This document shows, one piece after another, positions 1,082-54,650 of a DNA stretch of 64,000 nucleotides; the first letter of the stretch is position 1; each line of letters opens with the position of its first letter. Source of the stretch: Candidatus Latescibacterota bacterium (GTDB lineage Bacteria > Latescibacterota > UBA2968 > GCA-2709665); the NCBI GenBank assembly GCA_965226795.1, contig CBDDDZ010000005.1, positions 2,784,001 to 2,848,000 on the forward strand, in the 5' to 3' direction. A program made the position numbers and the translations under genes. Under the pieces are notes generated by a model. It had not been told where the DNA came from. It searched no databases and saw only the letters and a list, made by a program, of their open reading frames with translations.

Positions 1082-2035
1082 ATGCCCGTCAGCCCGGAAC
1101 ACATCACACTTATCCGAAGTGGCGCCATCGGAGACTTCGTGCTTACTCTCCCCGCGGTGGACGCCCTGCGCAGGGCTTTCCCACGCGCTACCCAAAGACT
1201 CATCGGTAACCCCACGACTCTGCGACTCGCACCCGTCGACAATCTTGTCGACATCAACAGCGCCGAAATCGCCGGGCTATATAATCCCGAAGGTCCGGTT
1301 CCCGAACGCACCCGCGCTCTCTTCTCCAATGTCGACCTACTTCTGGCCTACGCCGTCGACCCGGATTGCAGCCTTGAAGCCCGACTCACTGAGATGGTAT
1401 GCGGCCGGGCAATCGTATACGACCCGCGTCCGAAAGGGGGCATCCACATCATCGACCACCTCCTGGCGCCGTTTGGAAGGTTGTGTATTCCCACGCCAGA
1501 CCCGATCCCCCGGATCCGTCTGCACGAGTATGAACTGGTTCACGCCGACGACATCCTTCAAAAACACCGCCTGCCCTCCCCTTTGGTGGCCATTCACCCG
1601 GGAAGCGGTGGCCGGGGAAAATGCTGGTCGCTATCCTCCTTTTTTGAGCTCGCCCGCGGACTCCGCCTCCGCGGCGCAGGCGTCGTAGCCCTTTGCGGAC
1701 CCGTGGAAGGGGACACCGTCGATGAACTGCGGGCGCACCTCCCATGCCTGATTCCTCCCGACCCTCGCAGCCTTGCCTGCCTGCTAAACAGTGCCGACCT
1801 TTTCATTGGAAACGACTCCGGGCCGGGACACGTAGCCGCAGCAGTGGGCACCCCTACGCTCACCCTGTTTGGGCCTACGGACGCGGAAACGTGGGCGCCG
1901 CGCCATCCCCTCGCCCGTGTTCTGAAGGCCCCGGACGGACACCTTTCTTCCCTTTCGGTCGAATCCGTCCTGCAGGCCGCGCTCGAACAGCTTGCGACTG
2001 TCACATCCCCGCCACCGGATTCGCACCGCCCTTAA
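1082..2035 (+). CDS. Glycosyltransferase family 9 (ADP-heptose:LPS heptosyltransferase-like)
   Basis: GAIGDFVLTLP, IHPGSG..K.W and FIGNDSGPGHVAAAVGTPTLTLFGPT motifs; start taken at ATG 1082. Confidence 0.9.
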   Translation: MPVSPEHITLIRSGAIGDFVLTLPAVDALRRAFPRATQRLIGNPTTLRLAPVDNLVDINSAEIAGLYNPEGPVPERTRALFSNVDLLLAYAVDPDCSLEARLTEMVCGRAIVYDPRPKGGIHIIDHLLAPFGRLCIPTPDPIPRIRLHEYELVHADDILQKHRLPSPLVAIHPGSGGRGKCWSLSSFFELARGLRLRGAGVVALCGPVEGDTVDELRAHLPCLIPPDPRSLACLLNSADLFIGNDSGPGHVAAAVGTPTLTLFGPTDAETWAPRHPLARVLKAPDGHLSSLSVESVLQAALEQLATVTSPPPDSHRP

Positions 2036-6651: not shown

Positions 6652-8043
6652 ATGAAAACAAGAGACATCATCGACGTCGACGAGCCAAACCTCCTCGACG
6701 AACAATTCGGCTACAACCTGCCTCCCGGAATTCTGTTTGACGGCCCCCTGTACGAAGAAATTGGAGACCGGCTCGTCAGATTCGACCCGGAGGAAGCCCT
6801 CGCCCGCGACCTCGTCATTACCGATACCACTTTTCGGGACGGCCAGCAGGCCCGCCCGCCGTATACGGTGGAACAGCAGGTCAGACTCTACGATATGATG
6901 GCCAGGCTCGGCGGGCCAAACGGCATTATCCGCCAGACCGAGTTCTTTCTCTACACCAAAAACGACCGACGCACCCTGGAAGAATGCCGTGCGCTCGGGC
7001 ACCGTTTTCCCGAAATCACCTCCTGGATCCGGGCCGACAAGGGAGACTTTCGCCTGGTCAAGGAAGCAGGTGTACGGGAAACCGGGATGCTCACGCCCAG
7101 TTCCGACTATCACATCTTTTACAAACTCAAAAAAGACCGCAGGAAGGCATTCAACGACTACCTGGAGGTCGTCGAAGCCGCCTGGGAATCCGGCATAAGA
7201 CCACGGTGCCACCTGGAGGACGTCACCCGAGCGGACATCGAAGGCTACGTGTTGCCATTCGTCCAGGAACTGATGCGCCGTTCCGAGCAGGTGCCGCCGG
7301 AACTCCGCGCCAAAATCCGGCTCTGCGACACCATGGGTTTCGGGATCAGCTATCCCGGGGCGCGCCTCCCGCGCTCAATTCCCAAACTCGTCTACCGGAT
7401 GACCAACGACGGCGGGGTTCCGCACGATTGTCTGGAATGGCATGGGCACAACGACTTCCACAAAGTTCACGTCAACGGGGCTACCGCCTGGCTCTACGGC
7501 TGCAATGCACTCAACACGACGTTGTTCGGTTTCGGCGAACGCACCGGCAACCCTCCCCTCGAAGGTGCGATACTCGAATATATCGGCCTGCGCGGAAGCC
7601 TTTGCGGCATAGATACCATGATGATCCAGGAAATGGCCGGCTACATGCGCTCCATCGGCGTTGACATCGCTCCAAACTACCCGTTTGTGGGCAGGGATTT
7701 CAACACCACGAGGGCCGGCATCCACGCGGGCGGCCTGCGTTCCGATGAACGCATCTACAACATTTTCGATACCACCGCACTGTTCGGACGACCACCCCGG
7801 GTGGCGATAACGGACAAAACCGGTGTCGACGGGGTTGCCCTCTGGGTCAATGAGTTCCTGGGTCTCAAGGGCAACGCCCGGCTCAGCAAAATCAAAGTTC
7901 ACAAAATCGCCCGGTGGGTTATGGATCAGTACGAAATTCATGGTCGAATGAGCGCAATTACGGACAAGGAACTGGAAGAACAGGTCAAAATCAACCTCCC
8001 GGACCGGTACGCAATTTTTCAGGCCGGCCGCAAGGCCGGCTGA
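6652..8043 (+). CDS. Re-citrate synthase-like (IPMS/homocitrate synthase DRE-TIM family)
   Basis: ITDTTFRDGQQARPPYTVEQ, RCHLEDVTRAD, CDTMG, EWHGHNDF, GERTGN; no LeuA regulatory domain. Alternative TTG start at 6607. Confidence 0.75.
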   Translation: MKTRDIIDVDEPNLLDEQFGYNLPPGILFDGPLYEEIGDRLVRFDPEEALARDLVITDTTFRDGQQARPPYTVEQQVRLYDMMARLGGPNGIIRQTEFFLYTKNDRRTLEECRALGHRFPEITSWIRADKGDFRLVKEAGVRETGMLTPSSDYHIFYKLKKDRRKAFNDYLEVVEAAWESGIRPRCHLEDVTRADIEGYVLPFVQELMRRSEQVPPELRAKIRLCDTMGFGISYPGARLPRSIPKLVYRMTNDGGVPHDCLEWHGHNDFHKVHVNGATAWLYGCNALNTTLFGFGERTGNPPLEGAILEYIGLRGSLCGIDTMMIQEMAGYMRSIGVDIAPNYPFVGRDFNTTRAGIHAGGLRSDERIYNIFDTTALFGRPPRVAITDKTGVDGVALWVNEFLGLKGNARLSKIKVHKIARWVMDQYEIHGRMSAITDKELEEQVKINLPDRYAIFQAGRKAG

Positions 8044-8086
8044 TCCGCCCGTTTCGCAGTAAATTTTCGGATGATGGCGACTTATC

Positions 8087-9106
8087 GTGACGACCCGTAC
8101 CGTCTCCCACACCGCACTTAACGCCTTTTGCGTTGACCTCCTCAAAGCGGCCGGTGTACCTGAATCCGACGCCGGAATCACGGCCCGTATCCAGGTTGAA
8201 GCAGACCTTCGTGGCGTACATTCCCATGGCGCGCGCGGAATTGCGGGCTACATCCGCCAGATCCTGAGAGGCGAGATCAACCCGAATGCCCAGCCCCGGG
8301 TCCTTAGCGAAGGGGCCGCGTACGTCCATATGGACGCGGATAACGCCCTAGGACAGGTGGCCGCGTATAAGGCTATGCAGCGCGCCATCCAGAAAGCGGA
8401 AGGGGCGGGCATCGGGATGGCCGCCGTCCGCAATACCAATCACTATGGCGCCGCAGCCTACTATGTGAACATGGCGGTCGAGGCCGGTATGGTGGGCTTC
8501 AACACCACCGGTGGACGCAAAAACCGAGGAAACATGGCGCCGTACGGCAGCATCGAACCCGCCATCGGGAACGCGCCCTTCGCCTACGGTATCCCCGCCG
8601 GCCGGGAACGCCCCATCATCCTCGACATGGCCACCGGGGTAGTTGCCGCCGGAAAAATCGGCATCGCCAGGGACCGAGGCGAGAAAATCCCGCTGGGCTG
8701 GGCTCTGGACGCGGCGGGGCAACCCACCGACGACCCCCGGGAAGCCCATATTGTCGTACCCCTCGGGCCAAAAGGATCGGGCCTCGCCATCGTGATGCAA
8801 TGTATCGGCGGCATCCTGGCCGGCGCCGCCTTTCCTGACGTCGAAAAGTTCGGCTATCTGTTCATCGCGATCAATGTATCCACGTTCGCCGATCCGGAAT
8901 CCTTCACAACGGAAGTTGACACCCGTATTCAGACCATCCGCGAGGCCAGACCCGCAACCGGCGTAGACCGCGTCTACTACCCGGGAGAACCTGAATGGAT
9001 CGCTCGCGAGCGCAACCTCGAAAACGGCATCCCCATGCTTCTTCCCCATGTGACCGACCTGGAATCCGTTGCTACCGAACTGGGCGTCTCGAAGCGATTG
9101 GGATGA
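8087..9106 (+). CDS. Ldh_2 family (malate/L-lactate/ureidoglycolate dehydrogenase-like) oxidoreductase
   Basis: EADLRGVHSHG, NHYGAA, LDMAT, WALD..G.PT.DP, KGSGLA, YPGE motifs. Confidence 0.9.
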   Translation: MTTRTVSHTALNAFCVDLLKAAGVPESDAGITARIQVEADLRGVHSHGARGIAGYIRQILRGEINPNAQPRVLSEGAAYVHMDADNALGQVAAYKAMQRAIQKAEGAGIGMAAVRNTNHYGAAAYYVNMAVEAGMVGFNTTGGRKNRGNMAPYGSIEPAIGNAPFAYGIPAGRERPIILDMATGVVAAGKIGIARDRGEKIPLGWALDAAGQPTDDPREAHIVVPLGPKGSGLAIVMQCIGGILAGAAFPDVEKFGYLFIAINVSTFADPESFTTEVDTRIQTIREARPATGVDRVYYPGEPEWIARERNLENGIPMLLPHVTDLESVATELGVSKRLG

Positions 9107-9192
9107 CACACCCGCGGCAGATCCGCGGCTGGTAATGAAGTCTTTTATATCCGAGCCATCGTCGAGGCCCCTTCCCGCGCTGCGAAAAACCG

Positions 9193-9927
9193 ATGGACAT
9201 CCTCGTCCTGACAGCCACCGCTTTCGAGCAGGAAACGCTCCGCCGGAGTATTCCGCATCCGACGACGCGGACATTCGCCTACCGCGCACGCACGGAGGGC
9301 GAACTGGGGCCCCGTCGCGTCGCCCTGATCGAAACCGGTATCGGCGCCGTCAATACGGCCCAGGCGCTGACCGCCGCTCTGGAATCCTGTCGACCCGACT
9401 TCGTTCTGCAAATCGGCGTCGGCGGCGCCTACGCCGGCTCGCAACTGGACGCGGGAGACCTCGCCGTGGCCACCGAAGAGAACGACGGGGAACTTGGGGT
9501 CCTCGCACCGGACGGCTGGCTGCCGGCAGATACCATCGGCATCCCCGTCCTCAGCAAGATCCGAAACCACTACAATACCTTTCCGCTTGATACGTTCCTT
9601 GCCCGACAGGCGGTGACTCGGATCCTCAATGCCGCGTGGCCGGATGGAACCCCGGCCGTGCGTTCCGGTCCTTTTGTCACCGTACAACAATGCAGTGGCC
9701 TCGCCGCCAGAGGCAGCGAACTCGCCGCGCGGTTCAACGCCATCTGCGAGAATATGGAAGGCGCGGCCGCCGCGCATCTCTGCACGCTATACGAGGTTCC
9801 TTTCGTGGAACTGCGAGGCATCAGCAACCTCGTCGAAGACCGGAACCCCGGAGCATGGAAGCTTGGTCTGGCGGCCGCGAACGCGCAACAGGCTGCCCAT
9901 GTCCTGATAGAGGACCTGACGCCCTGA
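9193..9927 (+). CDS. mqnB: Futalosine hydrolase
   Basis: PNP/MTAN fold: TGIGAVN.A, GVGGAY, ENMEGAAAA, ELRGISNLVEDR...W; adjacent to mqnD. Confidence 0.9.
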   Translation: MDILVLTATAFEQETLRRSIPHPTTRTFAYRARTEGELGPRRVALIETGIGAVNTAQALTAALESCRPDFVLQIGVGGAYAGSQLDAGDLAVATEENDGELGVLAPDGWLPADTIGIPVLSKIRNHYNTFPLDTFLARQAVTRILNAAWPDGTPAVRSGPFVTVQQCSGLAARGSELAARFNAICENMEGAAAAHLCTLYEVPFVELRGISNLVEDRNPGAWKLGLAAANAQQAAHVLIEDLTP

Positions 9928-38925: not shown

Positions 38926-40287
38926 ATGCCTGATCCAACCGCCGTCAATACACACGCCCCCGGCCCACGCGGGCTCCCGCTGCTCGGCTGCGTTTTTCCG
39001 TTCCGCAAGGATCCGATCGGGTACCTGATGGATGCCTGGTCCAGGTACGGCGACGTGGTCCGGATCGACATCAGGGGCAAGACGGTGCACCTCGTCACCC
39101 GGCCGGAGCACATCGAACACGTGCTCGTGCGCAGGAGAAGCACCTATTTCAAAGGCTATGGATACGAAGACCAGAAACTCCTGCTGGGCGAGGGTCTGAT
39201 AACGAGCGAGGGAGAACTCTGGGAGCGCCAGCACCGGATCATGCAGCCGTTCTTCACGCCAAGAGGAACGATGCGCTTCATGGATGTAATGGTGAACGCG
39301 ATCCGCGACATGCTTGCGCGATGGGAGCCTCTCGCGGATGGCGAACGCGTGATCCACGTCGACGAGGAGATGGCGCGCCTCACGGGGAACATCATCGTTC
39401 GTATCCTGTTCAGCAGGGATCTGAACGAAGAGACATCGCGCATCGACGAGGCATTCCAGTACTGCGTGGGGTTCATCGACCGGCGTTCCGCCGATTTGAT
39501 TGCGCTGCCCATGTTCGTCCCCACGCCAGGGAATCGCCGGTTCAAGCAATGCCTGAACGCCATCCACCGGTACATCGACGAGCAAATCGACGAGCGGCGC
39601 GTTCATCCTGGGGAGGAGGATCTGCTCTCGGTACTGATGGGCGCCCGCGACGAGGAAACCGGCGAGCGCATGGACCGGAGGCAACTTCGGGACGAACTGG
39701 TAACGCTCTTCGTTGCGGGATATCAGACAACAATGCACGCGCTCACCTGGACGTGGTACCTGCTGGATCAACACCGGCAGGTGGCAGGAAGGTTGTGGGA
39801 AGAGCAGCATTCGGTGCTGAATGGACATCCGCCGACCCTCTCGACTGTTCAACACCTTCACTATGCCAGAATGGTATTCCAGGAAGCGATGCGCCTCTAC
39901 CCCCCGATTAAAGTGATCGTGCGTGAGGCCGCGGACGACGACGAGATTGACGGGTACCATATCCCAGGAGGGTCGCTCGTGCTCGTAAGTCCCTATATCA
40001 CGCAACGCCACCCGGCGCTGTGGGAGCATCCGGAGACGTTTGACCCCGAACGATTCACCCCGGAGCATACAGAACGACGCTCCCGCTACGCTTACCTGCC
40101 CTTCAGCGCCGGACCCCGGATCTGCCTAGGCGGCAATTTCGCGATGCTGGAAGCCGCGCTGGTTCTGGCGATGGTGATCCGGCAGTATCGGCTTCAGCTT
40201 GTTCCAGGCCACCCCGTTGAACCATCTACGGACGTGAAGACGTGGCCGCTCCACGGGATGCCCATGACCATACACCGCCGCAAGTAG
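38926..40287 (+). CDS. Cytochrome P450
   Basis: GLITSEG, AGYQTT I-helix, EAMRLYPP (ExxR), FDPERF, FSAGPRICLG heme Cys. Confidence 0.95.
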   Translation: MPDPTAVNTHAPGPRGLPLLGCVFPFRKDPIGYLMDAWSRYGDVVRIDIRGKTVHLVTRPEHIEHVLVRRRSTYFKGYGYEDQKLLLGEGLITSEGELWERQHRIMQPFFTPRGTMRFMDVMVNAIRDMLARWEPLADGERVIHVDEEMARLTGNIIVRILFSRDLNEETSRIDEAFQYCVGFIDRRSADLIALPMFVPTPGNRRFKQCLNAIHRYIDEQIDERRVHPGEEDLLSVLMGARDEETGERMDRRQLRDELVTLFVAGYQTTMHALTWTWYLLDQHRQVAGRLWEEQHSVLNGHPPTLSTVQHLHYARMVFQEAMRLYPPIKVIVREAADDDEIDGYHIPGGSLVLVSPYITQRHPALWEHPETFDPERFTPEHTERRSRYAYLPFSAGPRICLGGNFAMLEAALVLAMVIRQYRLQLVPGHPVEPSTDVKTWPLHGMPMTIHRRK

Positions 40288-40401
40288 AAGTCAGCCGGCC
40301 ACGACACACGTGCCCGCCCGCCTGGATCACCTTCCCCTGGCCTAAGCCGAGTGCATCTGTGTCGCCAGCGTGGCCGCCCGCTGAAACGTACCCCTCCCGC
40401 G

Positions 40402-42078
40402 CTACCTCTCATCGTCCGCCTCGAGCGTGTACAGTATCGCGCCGGCATCCTCCTCGGATGGTTCGGCGCAGAGAATCCGCCACTTGTACTGGATATCCCG
40501 CTTTCCCGCGCCCGCGGCCCGCAGGACCTCGTCTTCCGCCCAACCCGGGCGCATCAGATGGAGGCACGGCGGCGCCAGCCTTCGGGAGCGGCGCTTCTCG
40601 GCATACTCCACGTTGACCCCTGCCAGCGCGCGATCCAGATGGGGAATCACTTCGTCTCTGAGCAGGTCCCGTGCAACCTCCCCCTTGAACTCCGCATAGA
40701 TTTCGTACCGGCGCGCCCCCACGTTCGCCACCACCCGGAACTGTTCGATCACCGATACATCATATCGGCGGCGGACCTCCTCCAGCGCGAGGAGAAGATG
40801 GTTCACATGCATCTTCTCTCCCGTGATGCTCGTCATGTCGCGGCCCTTGCGGATGAACGCCAGCAACGGGGCATTCCGGTAGAACCCGGTCACCTGTACG
40901 ATGTCGTGAATGTCGTATCGGTAGAGGCCGCCGGGGGTGGTCAGCAGGATCGCATAGTTCACGCCGGACTCCAGTTCGTGGCTGGACAGTACGGGCGGAT
41001 TCGGGTCATCCAAAGATGCCTCCGGGATAAACTCGTAATAGTTGCCGTTCAGTGAGAGAATGCCCGAGGCGGTGTGATCCCGGTTTGGAAGGGTAAAATG
41101 TCCTTCGCTGGCCAGAAAACCCAGGTCGCGCATGGGTGCGTCGCCGTAATATTCCGGCAGCCTCCGGGCCTGTACGCCAACGCTGCCTCCCAGCCAGCAC
41201 CCGATGAGTTTCAGGTCCGGCCAACAATCCGCGGGCAGTAGCGCCCCCTTCCGTTCCGCCACTTCCGCGAGGACCCGCGCGCGGCCCGGCTCCGGCTTCA
41301 TGAGGGCGGCCAGTTTTTCGGCGAGTTCGGGCTGGTCCGGCAAGTCAGTGCCGGTTGTGCCGTCGTGAATCGCACGAACAATGGCCTCCGCGTTCCTGAT
41401 TGCGGTTTCAGCAAGGCGGATGAGCGTGCTGGGATTGGGTGTCCCGATGTATGAAACACGCCTTGCCAGCGCCAGGCGCGCAGCCACGAAATAGCGGCGA
41501 TCGTAGTCCTTGATCTCTGAAACGGCATATGGAATCGCATAGGTGCTGCGGATCGGCCCGGGAATTCGCTGATATAGCATCCCGGACGCGCTGCCGTACG
41601 GAAGTCCCAAGGGGGTGCGACCCTCGATTGCCCGGCTTACGATACCAACAAAGGCGCCATCCAGGAACGAGGGATGGTCCTGAAGCGCACGATAGATCCA
41701 CTCCAGGGAGAAACCGGACGCGCGCCGCATGGATTCGGGCGTGACCGGGATGTACTTCGGTTCGCCCGTGGTCCCGCTCGTCATGTTCAACATGCTGGGG
41801 GCGGCCGCGGTCAGGACCGCCTGCTCACCCGCGATAATCCGGTTGACGTAGGGACGCAGCCCTTCGTAGTCCCGGATTGGGACCTGACGGCGGAAGTCGG
41901 CCTCCGTGCGGATCGTGGCGAAGCCATGATCCCTTCCAAATGCCGTGTTGGCGTTGGTTTTCATCAGGCGGAGCAGAAAGGTGTTCTGCGCGGCCTGCGG
42001 GTGTTCCGCCGCGCGGTCGAGCTTCCGCGCCAACCCGTATCCCTTCATCCGAATGAGCGTCTTGACGAGTTTTCCCAC
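40402..42078 (-). CDS. GH3 auxin-responsive family protein (acyl acid-amido synthetase-like, ANL superfamily)
   Basis: TAFGRDHGF, VPIRDYE, TSGTTGEPKYIP, FLASEG, YEFIP, GGLYRYDIHD.V.V.GF, GEK. Confidence 0.9.
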   Translation of the reverse strand: MGKLVKTLIRMKGYGLARKLDRAAEHPQAAQNTFLLRLMKTNANTAFGRDHGFATIRTEADFRRQVPIRDYEGLRPYVNRIIAGEQAVLTAAAPSMLNMTSGTTGEPKYIPVTPESMRRASGFSLEWIYRALQDHPSFLDGAFVGIVSRAIEGRTPLGLPYGSASGMLYQRIPGPIRSTYAIPYAVSEIKDYDRRYFVAARLALARRVSYIGTPNPSTLIRLAETAIRNAEAIVRAIHDGTTGTDLPDQPELAEKLAALMKPEPGRARVLAEVAERKGALLPADCWPDLKLIGCWLGGSVGVQARRLPEYYGDAPMRDLGFLASEGHFTLPNRDHTASGILSLNGNYYEFIPEASLDDPNPPVLSSHELESGVNYAILLTTPGGLYRYDIHDIVQVTGFYRNAPLLAFIRKGRDMTSITGEKMHVNHLLLALEEVRRRYDVSVIEQFRVVANVGARRYEIYAEFKGEVARDLLRDEVIPHLDRALAGVNVEYAEKRRSRRLAPPCLHLMRPGWAEDEVLRAAGAGKRDIQYKWRILCAEPSEEDAGAILYTLEADDER

Positions 42079-42081
42079 GGT

Positions 42082-43242
42082 CTATCCCTCACCAAGAATC
42101 GTTGTGGTCTCCGCGTGGGCCAGCAGGGGGCCTTCCCTGACTTCGACGCCGAGACCCGGACCCCGAAGCAGCGGTGCACTTCCGCCGTGGCCGAACCTGA
42201 CAGGTTTTTCAGACACGTCTTCGACCAGCAACAGGCTTCCGTAGGAACCCTCCACGAACGCCACATCGTCCAGATGGGCGGCCACGCTCCGCCCCACAGC
42301 CGAAAGAATCGCGGATTCTCCCACCTGGCATCCCACTTGCAAGCGCAGCCCCGCACGGGCGGCCAATCGGGCGATCGCCAACGTGCGGGCAACACCACCG
42401 CACTTGGAGACGCGCAGATTGAAGAAGTCGCAGGCCTCCGCCGCGATCAGCGCCTCCGCGTCGGCCACGGTCACGAGCGATTCGTCGGCCATGATTGGAA
42501 TCGGCGAGAGGGACCGGACCTGCGCCAGCGCCGCCGGATCGCCGCGGGAAATGGGCTGCTCGGCGCAGGCGATGTCATACGGCGCCAGGGCTGCAAGCGT
42601 TGCGACGGCTTCGTCAGGCGTGTAGGCGCAGTTCGCGTCGACTCTGAGGGAGACCGACGGTCCCACGGCCTCGCGGACGGCCGCGACTCGATCGCAAGCG
42701 TCTTCCCCATCGATCTTGATCTTGACGGCCTGAAGTCCGTATTCCACGCAGACCCGCGCGAGCCGGACCGCGTTGTCGATTGAGCCACCCGTAATAACGC
42801 CGCTGTAGATGACGGCAGTCCGCTTGGGACGCAGGATCTCTCCCAGAGACAGTTTCTGATGCTGCAACAGGACGTCGAGCAGGGCCAGTTCGCAGGCCGC
42901 CCTCGCGGCGTGCCACGCAACGACGCCGTTGGATTCGCCATCGGGCAATGCCCGGTCAACCGGGGCCAGGGTACCGACGGGATCCGGACCGGGTGTCAGC
43001 GCCGGAAATTCGGAATCCGTGATGGCCGGCCAGAGACAATGCGCAATGTGATCGATGCACGTCCCGACGGTCTCGCCCGTCACGTATGGACGCGGCAGAC
43101 CTTCGCCGTAACCCAACGCGCCGTCGTCGGCCGTCAGGCGCACGACGACCGAGTCCGAACGGGACCGAACGGAAGCACTATGGCCGAAGGCCTCGACGAA
43201 GGGAATCCTGAGGGCGAAACAGGTTGCGCCGATGATCTTCAT
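42082..43242 (-). CDS. Enolase superfamily protein (dipeptide epimerase/muconate cycloisomerase-like)
   Basis: GYGEGLPRPYVTGET, VKIK, LRVDAN, EQP, ADES, NLRVSKCGG, PGLGV. Confidence 0.88.
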   Translation of the reverse strand: MKIIGATCFALRIPFVEAFGHSASVRSRSDSVVVRLTADDGALGYGEGLPRPYVTGETVGTCIDHIAHCLWPAITDSEFPALTPGPDPVGTLAPVDRALPDGESNGVVAWHAARAACELALLDVLLQHQKLSLGEILRPKRTAVIYSGVITGGSIDNAVRLARVCVEYGLQAVKIKIDGEDACDRVAAVREAVGPSVSLRVDANCAYTPDEAVATLAALAPYDIACAEQPISRGDPAALAQVRSLSPIPIMADESLVTVADAEALIAAEACDFFNLRVSKCGGVARTLAIARLAARAGLRLQVGCQVGESAILSAVGRSVAAHLDDVAFVEGSYGSLLLVEDVSEKPVRFGHGGSAPLLRGPGLGVEVREGPLLAHAETTTILGEG

Positions 43243-43950
43243 GCCGACCCTCGAATCGTGGCGCCGGGGCTGTGGTGCGGTCGCCCTATCTGCTGGACGT
43301 CCGAGAGTCCCTGGATTGACGGGATGGTGACATCGGGTATCTCCTCGGGGCGGCGGGGCACCTGAAACCGCGAAAAACCCTGCAACACGCGAATCGTCCT
43401 CCAGCCCTGAGATTTCGCGGGTCCGATATCGTTATCGAGTCGATCTCCAACCATCAGGGCGTTCTCTGAGTCGCATCCGGCCATCGAAATGGCCCTCCTG
43501 AAAATTTCCGGATCGGGCTTCGATAGGCCGAACTCGGCGGATGAAAAAACAAGCGAAAAACAGTCCCGAATGCGCCATTGCACGAGGCGTTCCTCTGTGC
43601 CTTCGGATTGGTTGGCGATGACGCCGAGCCTGAATTGCCGTGATAGCGTCTCGAGAAGCTCCGGGACACCGGGATACAGGACTTCGTTTTCGTGCTCGTA
43701 GCGCACGGAACGCTCAACGGTGCAAATCCGTTCGTCGGGCAGATCCAGACGCGCCAGCATACCACGAAACGGACTCGGGGCGAAGTCGGTCGCCGCCTGT
43801 TCGCACATCGAAATGAGTTCGTCGACGGAATGGCGTAGACCCAACCCCTCCATGCGCTCACACACGCCCTTGAGACGCGCCCGGTGCGCCCGAGTTTCGT
43901 CCACGAGCGTCCAGCCCAGGTCCAGAAAGATCCATTCGATAATTGTTCAT
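43239..43950 (-). CDS. HAD-like hydrolase (5' end has a +1 frameshift or a non-canonical ATT start)
   Basis: IEWIFLDLGWTLVD motif I lies upstream of the called GTG 43904; LYPGV, IANQ, SKPDP.IF, MVGDRLDNDI. Confidence 0.8.
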
Positions 43951-44148: not shown

Positions 44149-45654
44149 TTATCGATCCACGCCGTATTTCTTCAGCCAGTTCGTGAACGTCTGGTAGCTC
44201 GGGAGGCCCACCAGCCGGGCCGCCCGCGATTTGTTACCCTGTGTCTCATCCAGCGCCCGCGCCAGGTAGTGGCGCGCCACCGAGGCCAGTAGGTCCGGAA
44301 GGCAGAGATCGTCGCCGAGAGGGCGTTCGAGGATTCCCGAGTCGGCCCGGCCGACCGCGGGCATCAGCGCTTCCCGCATGTCCTCGCTATCGACAACGGG
44401 CCCCGCCGTCCACAGCGCGACCCGATGAAGCGTGTTCAGGAGTTCGCGGACGTTGCCCGGCCACGGGTGGGCCATGAGAAGATTTCTTGCGTTTGGAGAA
44501 ATTTTCTTGTGCTCGAATCCCGGCTGTCCCGCATGTTCCTCGTTGACCTGTTCGAGCAATCGATCCACGAGAAGACCCAGGTCGCCCTCACGTTCTCTCA
44601 GGGGAGGCAGCTTCAGGTCTGCCACGGCCAGACGATAGTACAAATCATCCCGGAACCGGCCACCGGCGACTTCCCCTGACAGGCCCCTGTTCGTTGCCGC
44701 TATGATTCTGACATCCACCTCGCGATGCGACCTCGAACCCACGGGCAGGACCCTTCCGTCCTGCAGGATCCGAAGGAATTTTACCTGGGCGGACGGGGAG
44801 AGTTCGCCGACCTCGTCGAGGAAGAACGTTCCTGAGTCGGCGGCCTCGAAATAGCCGAACCTTGCCCGGTGCGCGCCCGTGAACGCGCCCTTTTCGTGGC
44901 CAAACAGTTCGGATTCCGCCAGTTCCGCGGGTATCGCGCCGCAGTTGACCGCTACGAATGGCCGATCCCGCCGGGGACTCGCCCGGTGGATCGCCCGTGC
45001 CAGCAATTCCTTTCCGGTGCCTGACTCGCCCTGAATGAGAACCGGTACCGATCGCGGGGCCACGCGGCGAGCCCTGACAATAACGCGGGCCATCGCCTCG
45101 CTTCGGTGAATGATATCGGCGAATTCCGGCGCCTCCGGCGGGAGTCCCGCCGTCGCTTTTTCAAGGCGCTTGTCAGGACCCCGAAGCAGGTCGGGAATGA
45201 ACTCGGCCGAGATGTCGAACGGCACCGACGTGGTACGCACGCCCTGCTCCGCAGATGACTCGATCAGTTCGGCGGGAAACCGCGTTTTGGCCAGGATGAT
45301 CCAGATCGCGGCCATGGCCGGTGTGCCGGGACTCAGATGGTACGTCAGGTCAGCATCCTCCCCGTGACGCGCCAGCGTCTCCGACACAACCCGAACGGCC
45401 GCTTCGTAAATCTCGCCGAACTCCGTGGGCCCTGAGAGCGGCTCGTGCCGGACCGTGACAGCGGCCCCGGTCCACGGCCGGAGCCATTCGAGAAACGGCG
45501 CCGACACGTTTTCAGTGTAGTCGCTTATCAACACGGCGGCGTCAAACTCGCGCGTGCCGAGCGCCTGGGCGACCGGTCCGATGCCGACGACGGGATCGTC
45601 CGAGGGCGCCCGGAGATCCGCCTGGCCGATCCAACTGATCAGTATCCTTGTCAT
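44149..45654 (-). CDS. Sigma54-dependent activator with RtcR/CARF-like N-terminal domain
   Basis: N-terminal SWIG..D and [49 protein letters not shown]-terminal Fis-like HTH. Confidence 0.88.
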
Positions 45655-45759
45655 AGGCTACCTATATACAAAAAATCTTGTGATATCACAAGATTTCTTA
45701 TGGTTGGTTCCGGGCAAGGAAAGTCCCAACTTGCGTATGCAATGCACGTCTTCGATAGG

Positions 45760-48700
45760 CTATTCCTCCACGTCCGATACGTCGATGTTCACGACAAGGC
45801 TCACGCGTCCGCCCCTGCCGTCGCTGGTGCGCACGATTGCCGCGTATCCACGCTTTTCCTCGAAGTCATACGTCCCCTTCGTGAGGATCTGGCCGGTGTC
45901 CGGCTCAATGTCGAAGTGGTCCGCATCGGCGCCCCACAGGCTGTAGGTCAGCTCATTGCCGTCGGCATCCGTCGCCGCGATGGGATCCCCGATCGCCTCT
46001 CCCGCAGGCGCGTTCTCCGCCACGGAACGCGTCACCGGTGGCATGACGGTGAACAAGGGCGCACGGTTGACCGTTTTGCCGAAGCTCTTCGCAAAGATCA
46101 CGAAATCCTCAAAACCGATCCCTCCGTCGCTGTTCAGGTCGTATCCTGACTCATACTTGGCATCGCCCTCTCCATACCCGAACACGCCCGCGAAACCAAC
46201 AAAATCCGCAAAGGCCACCAGACCACTCCCGTCGAAATCCGCTGAAGGCGGCGCAACAGCCTGCAGAAGGATGCTCACCGAACGCGTCATCGCCTCCGGA
46301 TGATCGCCCCGGATAAGATCTACCCCCGCCACACGGATCTCTGTCTCCGAAAACGCATCCGTCGTCCTGAACCTGACGGTTCCCACCAACCCACTGTCCA
46401 CCATCGCCCGACTCCCCAGAGACGCGATACCCATCTCCACAAAGGTCGAATCCTGCTTCACCAATGCAGTAACATTCGGCAAGGCATCGCCCACGTCGAA
46501 CCCTGCAAACACAACCTGTGTCGCATCATAGCCCACCCGAAGGTCGAGACTGCGCGTACCCCGGATATCCACGCCGAATACCTGTATGGGTAAAACGCCG
46601 CCGGGCGCTATAACAGTAGACGAGACGAATTGATCTCTTTCGGAATTATCCAGATCCAGAGAAAGAGAGAACCGGTCATACAGAATCAGGATATTGGTCC
46701 GAACAATGTCGAGGGCCGTCCACTCGCCGTCGCCCGCCGCGCTATTTGAGTGCACCTGCACCTCGTATTCCGTGTCAGGGTCCAGTCCCGCAATGGTCGC
46801 GCTCGTGTCCGTCACATCCTGTGGGCCCTCCGTCCAATCCCCATCGCTACCCACCCGGTAGCGCAGATCGTAACCCGTAACGGGATCCCCATGGGTCGTC
46901 GGCGCCGTCCAACTGACTGTCAAGCTGATCGACGACGTCTCCGTCACCCTGGGCGAGACCGGCGGCGGAGGCGGCAACGGGGTCCTCACAGGACTCAGTG
47001 TCGACCAATCACTGTCGCCAGCGGCGCTGTTGGCCCGCACCTGCACCTCGTATGCCGTATTCGGGCTCAGACCCGGGATGGTTGCGGTCGTTTCGGCGAC
47101 ATCCTGCGGGCCGTCCATGAATTCCCCGGTACTGCCCTGCCGATAGCGCAGATCGTAACCCGTGACGGGCGCCCCGTTGGTTGTCGGCGCGGCCCAACTG
47201 ACCGTCACACTCGTCGTCGACGTCTCCATCACCACGGGCGCATCAGGCGGGGACAATGCAGGGGTCGGCGGGGGCGGAGGTGATGGCGGGGGAGGAGGAG
47301 GTGGTGGCGGGGGTGGAGGCGGAGGCGGGGGTGGAGGCGGAGGCGGGGGTGGAGGCGGGGGCGGTGGAGGTGGCGGAGGAGGAGGAGGAGGAGGATCCAC
47401 CCGCCCCCTGACGGTGTGCACGAGTCGAGTCGACAGCCGCCGTCCGTTATTGGTGCAGATGGCGCCAGGGATCGTACAGGGGCGGTTAGAGGCCAACTCC
47501 AACCTTACGTCGGCATAGGATTCAGGCTTGGTCACAATCTCCCAAAGGTAGTTGGTGCCGGAGCGGCGTTGGGCGCCAGTCACCGTGCCTCCGGTCACCG
47601 ACACGGCGTGGTCCCTGAAATCCTCGTAAAAAATCAATATGTCATCGCTGAACCGCAACCGAACACGGAAAGCCTGCCCATCATGCGTCCAGGGTGGATT
47701 GACAAATCTCGCCGTCAGAGCATCGGCTGTGGCCACCGCCGGGTTGTGGATCGCGAACGGGGCGTCAGTGAAGATCCAGGGGCGGGCCTGCTTGATCGCC
47801 AGCATATTGTCGCTGGTGATCTTGAACTCGATTTCCATGGCGAACGGGTCGCCTGGCACCGGGTTGTACAGACTCTCGAAGTGGGTATGAATCGTTCCGA
47901 GGTGCCGGCGCAACTGATCCAGCTGATCGTCGCTCATGAGAAGTCGACCCTGCGACACCTGGTTGGAGAACGCAACAACGGTGTGCGTGCCGGAAGAATT
48001 CAACAGGATTTCTTCCGGTACCGAGTGCGCGTCCGGATTGGTGACCAGGTCCTCGCCTAGCTGACTGTTGACGTAGTAGCTCCCGGATGTGCCGTAGGCG
48101 GGGTCAAAGCTGACAGCCACGCCGTTGACCCTTTCGTCCCGGTAACTGGGGTGCACCAGGATGCCCATCGCAGCCGCTTTGTGGTCGATGCGGTGAAAAT
48201 CGCGTTCGACGAAAGCCCGGAAGTTCCAAAGACCTGCGTACACCTCCTTGAGGGACTTGGCCAGATCCTCTTCGTCCTCACTGGGCTTCTGACTCTTGGA
48301 GTCGTACAGACCCGCGCCGTTGAACCCCGGCAGGTCCTCGTTGTTGGTGCTGGACCGGTAGCGCTTGTTGATGCCAGAGGCGAACGATTCGTTCATTGTA
48401 TCGATCGCCGCGATGATCCACTCCGGCGTCGACGCGTCCTCGATGGCTTTGCGCAATTCCTTGAGCGAGTCCGCCTGCGTCGTAAAGTCCGTCTGGAAAT
48501 CTTCGTTGGCCAGCATGTTATCAATGCGTCCGTATAGCCCGTTGTGCTTCATGAACTCGTCATAGAAATAGAACGGAATCGCGAAGCCGTCGGGCGCCGT
48601 CCCTTCCGGAAACCCCAGCGTACCCAGCACAGCCACGTTCGCCGCTTTGACCCCGAACGCCTTCCAGTCCCCAAAGCCGATTTCGCTGAGGGGCTTGATC

Positions 48701-50049
48701 GACGTGAACAAAAGGTCCCGTTGCGGCGTCTGCGCCAGGGCGGGGCGGGACGAGGCGTAGTGGTCATCGACCTCCGCGCGGGTGGCCGCATGCAGGTCCC
48801 AGCCGTCCTCGGTGACGGAGTAGCGGACATAGTTGTCGATCAGAGCGCTGATTGCGCCGTCGTCGATGGCATCGCGAATAAAGGCGTTGGGGATGCGGTC
48901 CTGAATGGCGCGCAGATTGACGTGCGACAGTGGAGTCTGGGACACGGTGGAGATGATGCCTGCAACGCGGGGCAGTTCGTTTGGCAGCGCCTCGTAGATC
49001 ACGATGTCGCGGGGGTGGGGACGCTCGTCCGGTTCCATGATCCGCAGAAGACCGTACCCTTCGCCCGGGTTCAACGCAAGGAAGCTGGTTTCGACCAGTA
49101 CGTCTTCGTCGTACACGAGGTTAATTCGGGATGCCTGGTACAACAGCAGGTCTGCCTGGAGTTGCGGAAGCACGGAATTTCGTATCCACAAGGCCAGATT
49201 GTCCTCTAGCAGCGGCATGCCGGCCGCGAGCAGAGTATACGTGCGAGCCACAACACTGGAGGAGTATCCGGTGTTGTATCGGCTGCCTATCCAGTAGCGG
49301 TAGACGCCCATGCTGCCATCGGGTGCGGCAACATCCGGGTCATAGATGATATTGCCGGGGATAAACCCCGGTCCCGCCGAGAGGTTTAACCAACGCAAAA
49401 AGATTCCATGATTCCGGAGTCTCCTGGTGTTCTGAAAGTAAACACGCGGCCGGTCAGTGTCCATGCCGAGCAGAACGAACTTGAGGTTCCATGTATCGCT
49501 GGTTTCTAAGGAGAGACTCTCGAACGTTTCCTGATCGGAAATGGCCAAAACGCCGTACGTGAAGGCAATGGCAACGGCCGGGTTGACCGGGTTCATGCTC
49601 CCCAAGTTATCGAGTTCGGTCAGATCGTCGATGCAGTCGCCGTCTACGTCGGCCGGGTCGGACACCAGGTACTTTTCCACCCGGTAGCGGCCCGCGGGAA
49701 GGGCCGACACGTTCTCGGCCAGCGCCGTCGTACCGGCTTCGCCGCGCTTCACCAGGACCGGATACTCCACCTCCTTTCCGTCGACGTCGTGCTCCACGTA
49801 GAGTACGAAATAGTCATCCGTCGTGGATTCCACCTCGATGGGCACCGCCGTCACCGCCACCGCCACCACCGTCGGATTATAGCCACCCCCTTCACACGGG
49901 TTACCGCCCTGGGCGAAACCGTGGGTGACCAGGGCCAACGAAACGGCCAATGCTGCAAGGGCCTTTGTCGCACTGCGGCGAACAACGCCTATTGTTAATG
50001 AAACCGCGCACGATCTGGATAATTCTAGCCGCGGGATAGGTGGCGTCAT
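45760..50049 (-). CDS. Exported multidomain protein: phospho-His swivel + PPDK_N ATP-grasp (dikinase core), poly-Pro, 2x FN3, cohesin-like, dockerin-like, cadherin
   Basis: Signal-like ALAALAVSLALVTHGFAQ; GIISTVSQTPLSHVNLRA; FGVKAANV; RSSTNNEDLPGFNGAGLYDS; MEIEFK..IKQARP; two FN3 repeats; DFDGSGLVAFADF / YDLNSDGGIGFEDF; RSVAEN..ATDADG. Alternative start at 50109. Confidence 0.88.
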   Translation of the reverse strand: MTPPIPRLELSRSCAVSLTIGVVRRSATKALAALAVSLALVTHGFAQGGNPCEGGGYNPTVVAVAVTAVPIEVESTTDDYFVLYVEHDVDGKEVEYPVLVKRGEAGTTALAENVSALPAGRYRVEKYLVSDPADVDGDCIDDLTELDNLGSMNPVNPAVAIAFTYGVLAISDQETFESLSLETSDTWNLKFVLLGMDTDRPRVYFQNTRRLRNHGIFLRWLNLSAGPGFIPGNIIYDPDVAAPDGSMGVYRYWIGSRYNTGYSSSVVARTYTLLAAGMPLLEDNLALWIRNSVLPQLQADLLLYQASRINLVYDEDVLVETSFLALNPGEGYGLLRIMEPDERPHPRDIVIYEALPNELPRVAGIISTVSQTPLSHVNLRAIQDRIPNAFIRDAIDDGAISALIDNYVRYSVTEDGWDLHAATRAEVDDHYASSRPALAQTPQRDLLFTSIKPLSEIGFGDWKAFGVKAANVAVLGTLGFPEGTAPDGFAIPFYFYDEFMKHNGLYGRIDNMLANEDFQTDFTTQADSLKELRKAIEDASTPEWIIAAIDTMNESFASGINKRYRSSTNNEDLPGFNGAGLYDSKSQKPSEDEEDLAKSLKEVYAGLWNFRAFVERDFHRIDHKAAAMGILVHPSYRDERVNGVAVSFDPAYGTSGSYYVNSQLGEDLVTNPDAHSVPEEILLNSSGTHTVVAFSNQVSQGRLLMSDDQLDQLRRHLGTIHTHFESLYNPVPGDPFAMEIEFKITSDNMLAIKQARPWIFTDAPFAIHNPAVATADALTARFVNPPWTHDGQAFRVRLRFSDDILIFYEDFRDHAVSVTGGTVTGAQRRSGTNYLWEIVTKPESYADVRLELASNRPCTIPGAICTNNGRRLSTRLVHTVRGRVDPPPPPPPPPPPPPPPPPPPPPPPPPPPPPPPPPPPPPSPPPPPTPALSPPDAPVVMETSTTSVTVSWAAPTTNGAPVTGYDLRYRQGSTGEFMDGPQDVAETTATIPGLSPNTAYEVQVRANSAAGDSDWSTLSPVRTPLPPPPPVSPRVTETSSISLTVSWTAPTTHGDPVTGYDLRYRVGSDGDWTEGPQDVTDTSATIAGLDPDTEYEVQVHSNSAAGDGEWTALDIVRTNILILYDRFSLSLDLDNSERDQFVSSTVIAPGGVLPIQVFGVDIRGTRSLDLRVGYDATQVVFAGFDVGDALPNVTALVKQDSTFVEMGIASLGSRAMVDSGLVGTVRFRTTDAFSETEIRVAGVDLIRGDHPEAMTRSVSILLQAVAPPSADFDGSGLVAFADFVGFAGVFGYGEGDAKYESGYDLNSDGGIGFEDFVIFAKSFGKTVNRAPLFTVMPPVTRSVAENAPAGEAIGDPIAATDADGNELTYSLWGADADHFDIEPDTGQILTKGTYDFEEKRGYAAIVRTSDGRGGRVSLVVNIDVSDVEE
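47266..47394 (-). repeat. Polyproline-encoding low-complexity tract
   Basis: 37 consecutive Pro codons (47284-47394), then Ser, then 5 Pro; internal 18-bp near-tandem units GGTGGAGGCGGAGGCGGG. Confidence 0.95.
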
Positions 50050-50503
50050 TATCAGACTCCCGTTATCCAAGATCCGGCTGGCGAATAGACAAAAAAATAC
50101 CCGATTCATCCCTCCGCTACGTAGCGAAGAGGATGCGGGAAGATTCTAACCATTCGCAGGGGACATGGCAGCTACCCATACAAATTGACTATTGAACTCG
50201 ACGGGTTACCGCACCCACGTGCGATGCAACTATTGGGACAGAGGAAATATACCGCGAGCCGCGTGAAATTGGTGTGGTATATCGGTCAGTTTGATGGTTT
50301 TTTAGTGGAAACAAGACCCAACTGGTATATTGAGGGAGGCGCATGCCGGCAGCGAAAAGCCGGAATTGCGTCTGGCAGACCGATGAGCGAGGAGGTGCGT
50401 TGGAAGGAGAGGTAAAGACGGTGAGTGGACCGGCTCCCACCCGGCGGCAGGAAACAGCGGGTTACGGGGCGCGCAGTCGGCCGCCCACAGTCCCACCCGA
50501 TGG

Positions 50504-50532
50504 TTGACAGTTTGGTATGAATTCAATATCCT
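50504..50532 (+). promoter_or_regulatory. Putative sigma70 promoter for the thermonuclease gene
   Basis: TTGACA-17nt-TATCCT, ~40 nt before ATG 50573. Confidence 0.55.
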
Positions 50533-50572
50533 GTTGCGTTTACATATCTCAAGCCATATTCCGGAGCGCGCT

Positions 50573-50971
50573 ATGGTATGGATTCTCGTTGTTCTTGCCG
50601 CATTGTCGGCAGCTGAGCGGAAGCCGTCGATGTCAACAAGGTACGAAGCAACCGTGGTTTCCGTCTACGATGGCGATACGTTCACCGTTGACGTGGCCCT
50701 CTGGCCGGGCCTGACCTGGCGCGGTAAGGTACGCGTGCGGGGTGTGGATACGCCGGAGATTCAGACGAAGAGCAAGAGGGAAAAGAAACGCGCGTTGCTT
50801 GCCCGCGATTTTGTCCGTGCACGGATCGGCAAAACCGTTTTCCTGGAAAACGTGAAGCAGGGCAACTTCTCCGGGCGCGTCGTGGCAACCGTCAGACTAC
50901 CGGATGGGTCCAACCTCGCGAAGATCCTGATACGGGAAGGGCACGGGAAGGCCTACAAAAGGCGGCGATGA
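50573..50971 (+). CDS. Thermonuclease (SNase-like) family protein with signal peptide
   Basis: VVSVYDGDT, VRVRGVDTPE, GRVVA.V, LIREGHG; hydrophobic N-terminus. Confidence 0.88.
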   Translation: MVWILVVLAALSAAERKPSMSTRYEATVVSVYDGDTFTVDVALWPGLTWRGKVRVRGVDTPEIQTKSKREKKRALLARDFVRARIGKTVFLENVKQGNFSGRVVATVRLPDGSNLAKILIREGHGKAYKRRR

Positions 50972-53967: not shown

Positions 53968-54035
53968 GAGACCCGCGCTCGCGTGGAAGGCGAACCAAGG
54001 GCGACCTTTCCCATCTGACTATCCCTGTGACGGCT

Positions 54036-54650
54036 ATGTCGAGTCCGCAGCTTGTCGTTATTGGAGGACCCAATGGCGCCGGCAAGAGCACGGCCGCGCC
54101 ACAGCTATTGCGAGATGCGCTGGATGTAGCGGAATTTGTCAACGCTGACGCCATTGCCTCGGGACTTTCGGGCTTCCACCCGGAGTCGGCCGCACTTCAG
54201 GCAGGCCGTGTCATGTTGAAACGGGTCCGCCGTCTGGCTTCGAACCGAGCTGATTTTGCGTTTGAGTCAACGCTAGCAAGCCGCGGTTTTGCTCCATGGA
54301 TTGACCGCCTCAAACAGAGCGGATATGTCTTCCGATTGGCATTTTTGTGGTTGCCTAATCCGGACGTGGCTATCGCGCGAGTCGCGGCGCGGGTACGAGC
54401 AGGAGGTCACGACATTCCTGACTCAACGATTCGACGGCGGTACTACTCCGGGCTTCGTAACTTTTTCAGACTGTACCGTCCGATTGCGAATGATTGGCGT
54501 TTTTACGATAGTACTGCAACCTCGGGGCCCCGTTTGATCTCAATGGGAGAAAGCACTGCTGATATCGAAGTCCGGGACGTCAATCTGTGGACACGCATTA
54601 AGGAAGGTGTACAAGACTGTGAGAAGGTCATCCAAAAAAGACATCGGTAA
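54036..54650 (+). CDS. Zeta-toxin-like P-loop ATPase/kinase
   Basis: GGPNGAGKST, FVNADAIA, FAFESTL, RVAARVRAGGHDIP..IRRRY. Confidence 0.88.
   Translation: MSSPQLVVIGGPNGAGKSTAAPQLLRDALDVAEFVNADAIASGLSGFHPESAALQAGRVMLKRVRRLASNRADFAFESTLASRGFAPWIDRLKQSGYVFRLAFLWLPNPDVAIARVAARVRAGGHDIPDSTIRRRYYSGLRNFFRLYRPIANDWRFYDSTATSGPRLISMGESTADIEVRDVNLWTRIKEGVQDCEKVIQKRHR

Follow-up and report, generated by a model that had tools for sequence, protein, structure and literature searches.

Gene and domain architecture

The subject of this analysis is a gene on the minus strand of a 64,000-nucleotide window (contig CBDDDZ010000005.1 of a Candidatus Latescibacterota bacterium, positions 2,784,001 to 2,848,000), whose product is very probably an exported and active dikinase that relays phosphate through a histidine. 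A single open frame at 45760–50109 (−) encodes 1449 amino acids (aa) counted from the first ATG, at 50109, from which residues are numbered throughout. On sequence grounds the second ATG, at 50049, is the likelier start because a ribosome-binding-like GGAG lies 7 nt upstream; it gives 1429 aa, and the coding sequence is annotated as 45760–50049 (−) with the frame open to the upstream ATG. An artefact of frame or assembly was rejected, as full-length relatives are 63–74% identical and independent contigs span the gene.

The protein begins with a predicted signal-peptide-like N-terminus (residues 21–66, 49912–50049), in which RR..K, a hydrophobic stretch and GFA/QG are seen from sequence and hydropathy. 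A core of about 715 residues follows, composed of an immunoglobulin (Ig)-like domain with a calcium-type loop, an alpha/beta domain, a swivelling phosphohistidine domain and a PPDK_N ATP-grasp domain. The motif positions named in a preliminary description of this DNA were all found where it had placed them. The dikinase gene is single-copy in the genome, which elsewhere holds two ordinary genes of about 900 aa with PPDK_N and phosphoenolpyruvate (PEP)-utilizer domains.

Behind the core lies a stalk. It starts with an unnamed module of about 115 aa (47395–47742) that has no Pfam hit, carries a Cys-x-x-x-GAICT motif and is a frequent stalk component among relatives (131 of 433 proteins). A run of 37 prolines (residues 906–942, 47284–47394) precedes two fibronectin type III domains (46696–47253), a repeat that is 75% identical as DNA, and a cadherin-like domain (45763–46059) closes the protein. 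The poly-Pro, fn3 (two copies, E 9.9e-33) and cadherin (E 1.7e-6) modules of the preliminary description are thus retained, both Pfam domains being above cut-off, while its cohesin (46255–46677, E 0.013–0.072) and dockerin (46081–46242, dockerin_GC, E 0.097) fall under the Pfam/NCBIfam cut-offs and can only be called cohesin-like and a dockerin-like EF-hand pair. Since the EF-hand pair occurs on 44 open reading frames (ORFs) of the genome and the cohesin-like part has 12 tblastn matches in it, the stalk is a generic, interchangeable arm.

Fold, conservation and probable export of the core

The predicted structure of residues 67–785 has a mean predicted local distance difference test score (pLDDT) of 90. 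Its ATP-grasp domain (residues 467–783, 47761–48711), recognized by Pfam PPDK_N over residues 486–778 (E 2.8e-27), superimposes on rifampin phosphotransferase (RPH) 5hv1 with Z 30.7 (root-mean-square deviation, rmsd, 2.4 Å; 290 aligned) and on HpeI 9goj with Z 23.4, in agreement with the assignment previously made from motifs. Residues 342–445 (48775–49086) match the pyruvate kinase swivel 2e28 (Z 10.1, rmsd 3.2, 98 aligned), enzyme I 2wqd (Z 9.5) and the pyruvate phosphate dikinase (PPDK) carrier 2fm4 (Z 8.5, rmsd 3.1, 98/128 aligned). Although Z scores of 8–10 are middling, three independent swivel domains match the same range of the model and its histidine is invariant, so that this is the His swivel domain. 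The motif GIISTVSQTPLSHVNLRA..RIPNA at 48960–48880, which contains the predicted phospho-carrier His396 (48922–48924), lies within this swivel range, as the preliminary description had anticipated. Its further attribution to the PEP-utilisers holds for the fold and fails for the profile: Pfam PEP-utilizers matched none of 76 members at the swivel domain. GWD1_pHisD matched three of the 76 weakly (best E 8.4e-4) and gave no match for ORF 45760–50049. Profile searches of the ORF returned no pyruvate-binding barrel, consistent with what had been noted before.

Modelled alone (pLDDT 93.7), residues 71–340 form an Ig/FN3-like beta-sandwich (about residues 77–150, 49660–49881; weak fold matches only, Z 3.3–3.9), an acidic loop and an alpha/beta domain of about 160 aa (about residues 181–340, 49090–49569). 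The loop, DxDxD..D..E at residues 152–165 (49615–49656), would bind calcium. Foldseek gave no match at E≤0.001 for residues 71–340, the best VIA Z score being 5.1. The modelled alpha/beta domain may be a new acceptor-binding fold, weak matches alone being no proof of novelty, and together with the sandwich it makes a likely acceptor site, in line with the earlier suggestion that the region before the His domain binds substrate. When this N-terminal region and the His domain were docked as two chains, the score was 0.00, which speaks neither for nor against contact between them. One partial match to the region was seen in G330.

To describe conservation, 115 cores were aligned: the query, 38 of 75 genome loci (hand-picked for spread), 74 of 80 metagenome loci (6 partial ones left out) and 2 Streptomyces proteins. 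H396, K488, R585, S587, E591, D592, E761, Q774 and R776 are invariant in 115/115 cores, and His396 is present in 79/80 sequences of a separate comparison. These residues line up with the motifs of PEP synthase and RPH, in which Lys22 and Arg117 are needed for phosphotransfer (PMC4844700), and they stay invariant down to 42% identity. A second histidine, H234, is likewise found in 115/115 cores, and K210 in 114/115; with N227 and R328 they would form a candidate acceptor site on the alpha/beta domain. D154, D156, D158 and D162 of the acidic loop occur in all 113 exported-type members and in neither of the two cytoplasmic Streptomyces proteins. The ratio of nonsynonymous to synonymous substitution rates (dN/dS) was 0.23–0.39 in 11/11 pairs, and about 0.23 in the ATP-grasp domain, which indicates purifying selection.

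Several features of the relatives point to export. By a crude hydropathy rule that differs from SignalP, a hydrophobic 11-mer lies before the core in 66/67 metagenome proteins that could be assessed and within the first 90 residues at 56/64 genome loci, both to be compared with 601/1,503 long control ORFs. A type IX secretion system (T9SS) sorting tail (E≤0.001) was detected on every metagenome relative with a complete C-terminus (68/68, 67 of them above cut-off; 12 of 80 loci were not assessable), and other relatives carry cell-wall-binding repeats (CWB2) or a lipoprotein-type start. The sequences show one core furnished with different export tags in different lineages. The product of ORF 45760–50049 is likely exported, judging from N-termini and the T9SS tails of relatives, as the preliminary description had proposed from its signal-peptide-like start. 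A distant lipoprotein-type member (887 aa, 29% identity) lies at 6719–9379 (−) of locus L206, in an actinobacterial genome.

Family, mobility and insertion site

Of 7,998 proteins scored in one search 2,742 were matched, the best 120 of them 63–74% identical across nearly the whole core but with varied tails. A full scan gave 1,190 clusters at 50% identity with E≤1e-30, and 4,144 with E≤0.001, the weaker of which will include ordinary PEP synthases; wider cluster searches returned only PPDK_N clusters without names. Of 532 candidate stretches in species genomes, 516 could be confirmed, and the titles of the 75 loci kept name Chloroflexota, Latescibacterota, Binatia, Acidobacteriota, Acidimicrobiia, Thermodesulfobacteriota and Cenarchaeum. 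Among metagenome contigs 503/601 were confirmed and 80 loci kept; these relatives are 42–52% identical and come, where the habitat is named, from marine samples or activated sludge. A family restricted to sponges was considered and rejected because such aquatic relatives are common outside them. The host itself is likely a Latescibacterota sponge symbiont, since the nearest cores include three Latescibacterota records and sponge metagenomes contain the stretch. Phage records held matches at the level of the ATP-grasp domain only, and viral contigs none. No paper describing this dikinase family was found in the open-access literature (bioRxiv supplements not covered). The family is unnamed and very large, and what its members share is a mobile core cassette joined to an interchangeable arm, which goes beyond the preliminary description.

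The gene neighbourhoods of relatives bear on the acceptor. The cytoplasmic Streptomyces relatives match over 551 profile columns (probability 99.8), K210 and H234 included. In the five loci examined (L096:6124–10951, L097:6127–10807, L098, L204 and L205) the dikinase lies between an ATP-grasp ligase, BacD-like where scanned, and a major facilitator superfamily (MFS) transporter. The unit reads PAS-HTH regulator, BacD-like ligase, His-first dikinase and MFS exporter, and its product is possibly a phosphorylated dipeptide. At 46 of 80 metagenome loci a secreted His_Phos_1 phosphatase stands beside the dikinase (40 upstream on the same strand, 6 downstream on the opposite strand), a pairing that survives a rearrangement. 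The phosphatase at 1369–1890 (+) of L158 and those at the 45 other loci are of about 172 aa, with an RH(S/A)E motif, and are linked to a T9SS-tagged dikinase. All 46 loci belong to one clade, so the link has one origin. Fusions among 431 core-bearing proteins join the core to a sulfatase (11), a purple acid phosphatase (5, close kin), a sugar dehydrogenase (3) or a deacetylase (1), and 21 of the 431 carry two cores. Around the 75 genome loci, the conserved neighbour clusters consisted for the most part of stalk modules and of ORFs in the opposite frame, many flanks being filled by the giant ORF itself, and no conserved carbohydrate genes were found near dikinase loci.

At this site the dikinase gene is an accessory insertion, a 4,794-bp segment (45703–50496) in place of which the congeners G008 and G003 have 81 bp and 184 bp, and it moves across phyla. 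Cores from Binatia and Latescibacterota records share 92% DNA identity, and those from Dehalococcoidia and Acidimicrobiia records 90%. A quick tree built from 31 rows rejected monophyly for the five cores of Latescibacterota type (p-AU 4.6e-98) and placed the archaeal Cenarchaeum copy among bacterial cores. Matches occur in 4/14 congeners and 17/168 genomes of the phylum, several of them interrupted; at the same site a third congener, G013 (L209), holds a dikinase copy that is interrupted, along with another gene that encodes only a stalk and what is probably a DNA methyltransferase gene. No target-site or terminal repeats flanking the insertion were present among the repeats listed. Summed read depth, a coarse measure, was far higher over parts of the core than over the flanks in two DNA runs, which is what a core present in many members of the community would give.

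To the left of the insert, a sigma-54-dependent activator (44149–45654, −) has an RtcR-like N-terminus (NF038308 best, under cut-off). It is absent from this site in most congeners, which marks the space that separates the HAD gene from the nuclease gene as an insertion hotspot. A near-perfect 15-nt palindrome (93%) at 45670–45699, just upstream of the activator and at the left edge of the insert, is possibly an operator or terminator. On the other side, a small staphylococcal-nuclease-family gene with a signal-peptide-like start (50504–50971, +) is divergent from the dikinase and kept in congeners without it. Also kept in congeners is a block at 38926–43904, where a cytochrome P450 faces GH3-family ligase, enolase-superfamily and HAD genes, possibly a small biosynthetic unit. 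A Zeta-toxin/AAA_33-like small P-loop protein is encoded at 54027–54650 (+).

Proposed function and comparison with known systems

In the reaction that we propose, the beta-phosphate of ATP would be loaded onto His396 with release of AMP and phosphate, and the His396 domain would swing it to a site on the alpha/beta domain, where a small or peptide-sized acceptor, rather than glucan, would be phosphorylated. The first step and the swivel are taken by analogy from known families (RPH, glucan, water dikinase (GWD) and PEP synthase). A small acceptor is suggested because the Streptomyces relatives have the same acceptor-side domain in ligase and exporter operons. In the one aquatic clade where it occurs, the phosphatase pairing might constitute a write/erase or two-step unit. 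The ATP would have to be supplied locally, for instance by host tissue, by particles or by cells undergoing lysis. That the protein is an exported, active His-relay dikinase and also has a small acceptor other than water is, jointly, a proposition that falls a little short of an even chance. A wider picture is more tentative and, in our estimate, rather doubtful: an extracellular phosphorylation system, traded by sponge symbionts from bacteria to archaea, in which a His-relay kinase, mobile and exported and with an acceptor domain whose fold has no match, would be paired with secreted phosphatases and use host- or prey-derived ATP, marking a matrix or signal molecule and turning a host ATP signal into inert AMP.

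Several observations weigh against a small-acceptor kinase at the cell surface. Dissolved ATP in the open ocean is 0.06–0.21 nM (PMC3371651), and the Km of RPH is about 8 µM (PMC4844700). The alpha/beta domain, which would hold the acceptor, is the least conserved part of the core (49–55% identity vs 72–80% elsewhere; dN/dS 0.42–0.58), and no acceptor was identified. The Streptomyces relatives are only 26–28% identical, and their likeness to TalE (see below) is one of operon plan. The phosphatase, besides its single origin, is absent from sponge-type loci and was found neither at the other loci compared nor beside this gene. Many congeners lack the gene or have broken copies. Short exact RNA contigs with a depth of 2–5 cover the gene and its neighbours equally, and thus give no evidence of transcription, as DNA carry-over is possible. 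A search for an ATP/ADP translocase partner (PF03219) matched none of five genomes, but its controls were equally silent, so that it weighs neither way.

The core might instead be a surface ATP diphosphohydrolase, in which water or a partner phosphatase strips the phosphate from His396 and ATP becomes AMP and two phosphates, for nucleotide scavenging or, in sponges, for silencing ATP signals. Potato GWD does turn about 80% of its ATP into AMP and phosphate in vitro (PMC13553574); the enzymes found fused to the core (sulfatase, purple acid phosphatase, sugar dehydrogenase, deacetylase) are scavenging exoenzymes, and the neighbour phosphatase has weak SixA-type matches. However, these fusions are few, kin-linked and counted without a background rate, 5'-nucleotidase already fills this role, the family is common outside sponges, and the third domain with its invariant Lys and His is kept even in the relatives that stay in the cytoplasm, for which hydrolysis alone would be a waste of ATP. 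We consider hydrolysis unlikely, if deserving of serious attention. A GWD-like kinase acting on an extracellular glucan, another polysaccharide or a protein seems improbable to us. The domain order is that of GWD, the Leu at −2 from His corresponds to GWD L990/H992, GWD1_pHisD matched three members where PEP-utilizers matched none, and the Ig-like domain and long stalk would suit a polymer; yet CBM45 is missing, an alpha/beta domain stands in place of the all-helical central domain, carbohydrate genes are not conserved nearby, and the closest relatives of full architecture sit in small-molecule operons.

The core could also be a passenger without catalytic function, or a module that binds nucleotides and is shuffled from adhesin to adhesin, as its patchy, mobile and often broken occurrence and the proteins with two cores would allow. 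The invariance of all catalytic residues to 42% identity and the low dN/dS of the ATP-grasp domain make this very improbable. Dikinase reactions are reversible, and a high-energy donor such as a phosphoramidate might supply phosphate to make ATP from AMP and phosphate outside the cell. This would remove the problem of ATP supply, but no exported ATP consumer was found to use the product: CotH kinase was not found in this genome, with controls matched in 4/14. Such a reverse reaction has, in our view, the smallest chance of all.

To our knowledge, the His-swivel dikinases considered from the literature all act within the cell or the plastid, at millimolar ATP. If a selected and mobile family of them is exported, extracellular ATP would be consumed or destroyed by microbes along a route so far unrecognised. 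The way in which symbionts deal with the extracellular ATP of their hosts, and the places where ATP suffices for such use, thereby become open to experiment, for which the compact core is suitable as it stands, His396 and His234 serving as controls.

GWD1 and its relative PWD of plants and algae are the nearest in plan, with an acceptor-side domain, a His swivel with a Leu-x-His motif, a C-terminal ATP-grasp and no pyruvate barrel. The preliminary description had read the order as GWD-like, which holds; the order is not peculiar to plants, since cytoplasmic Streptomyces proteins in small-molecule operons share it. A specific kinship in glucan chemistry finds no support. GWD has two CBM45s and a helical central domain of about 440 aa with 20 helices (PMC13553574). 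In contrast, residues 67–462 of our protein have no Pfam CBM match at E≤1 and hold a single sandwich of about 75 aa in the model. An alpha/beta domain of about 160 aa stands in place of the 20-helix domain, for which the region has too few residues. The protein also has no Pfam GWD1_pHisD match and is likely exported, with a calcium-type loop and an adhesin stalk.

RPH provides the best structural match of the ATP-grasp domain, and the same His-relay chemistry is expected as in RPH and small-molecule dikinases such as HpeHI (PMC4844700, PMC12167813). RPH is cytoplasmic, however, and ordered as ATP-grasp, rifampin-binding domain and C-terminal His; the match is limited to its chain residues 1–318, leaving its substrate domain unmatched, and NF041857 scores 41.9 bits against a cut-off of 999. 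PEP synthase and PPDK share the PPDK_N domain and the swivel fold in reverse order, whereas our protein has no C-terminal pyruvate-binding TIM barrel, GGxTSHAAI motif or regulatory Thr, and scores 70.5 bits against a cut-off of 598 for this group. TalE, an N–P-bond-forming kinase of phosphoramidon biosynthesis that N-phosphorylates a dipeptide, is a PPDK-like kinase beside an ATP-grasp ligase and an MFS transporter (PMC6482885), the same plan as around the Streptomyces relatives. The Streptomyces operons lack a glycosyltransferase, and the product of ORF 45760–50049 is likely exported and stands alone. The dikinase departs from GWD, RPH and PEP synthase/PPDK in the defining features tested, although chemistry like that of GWD and RPH is expected of it.

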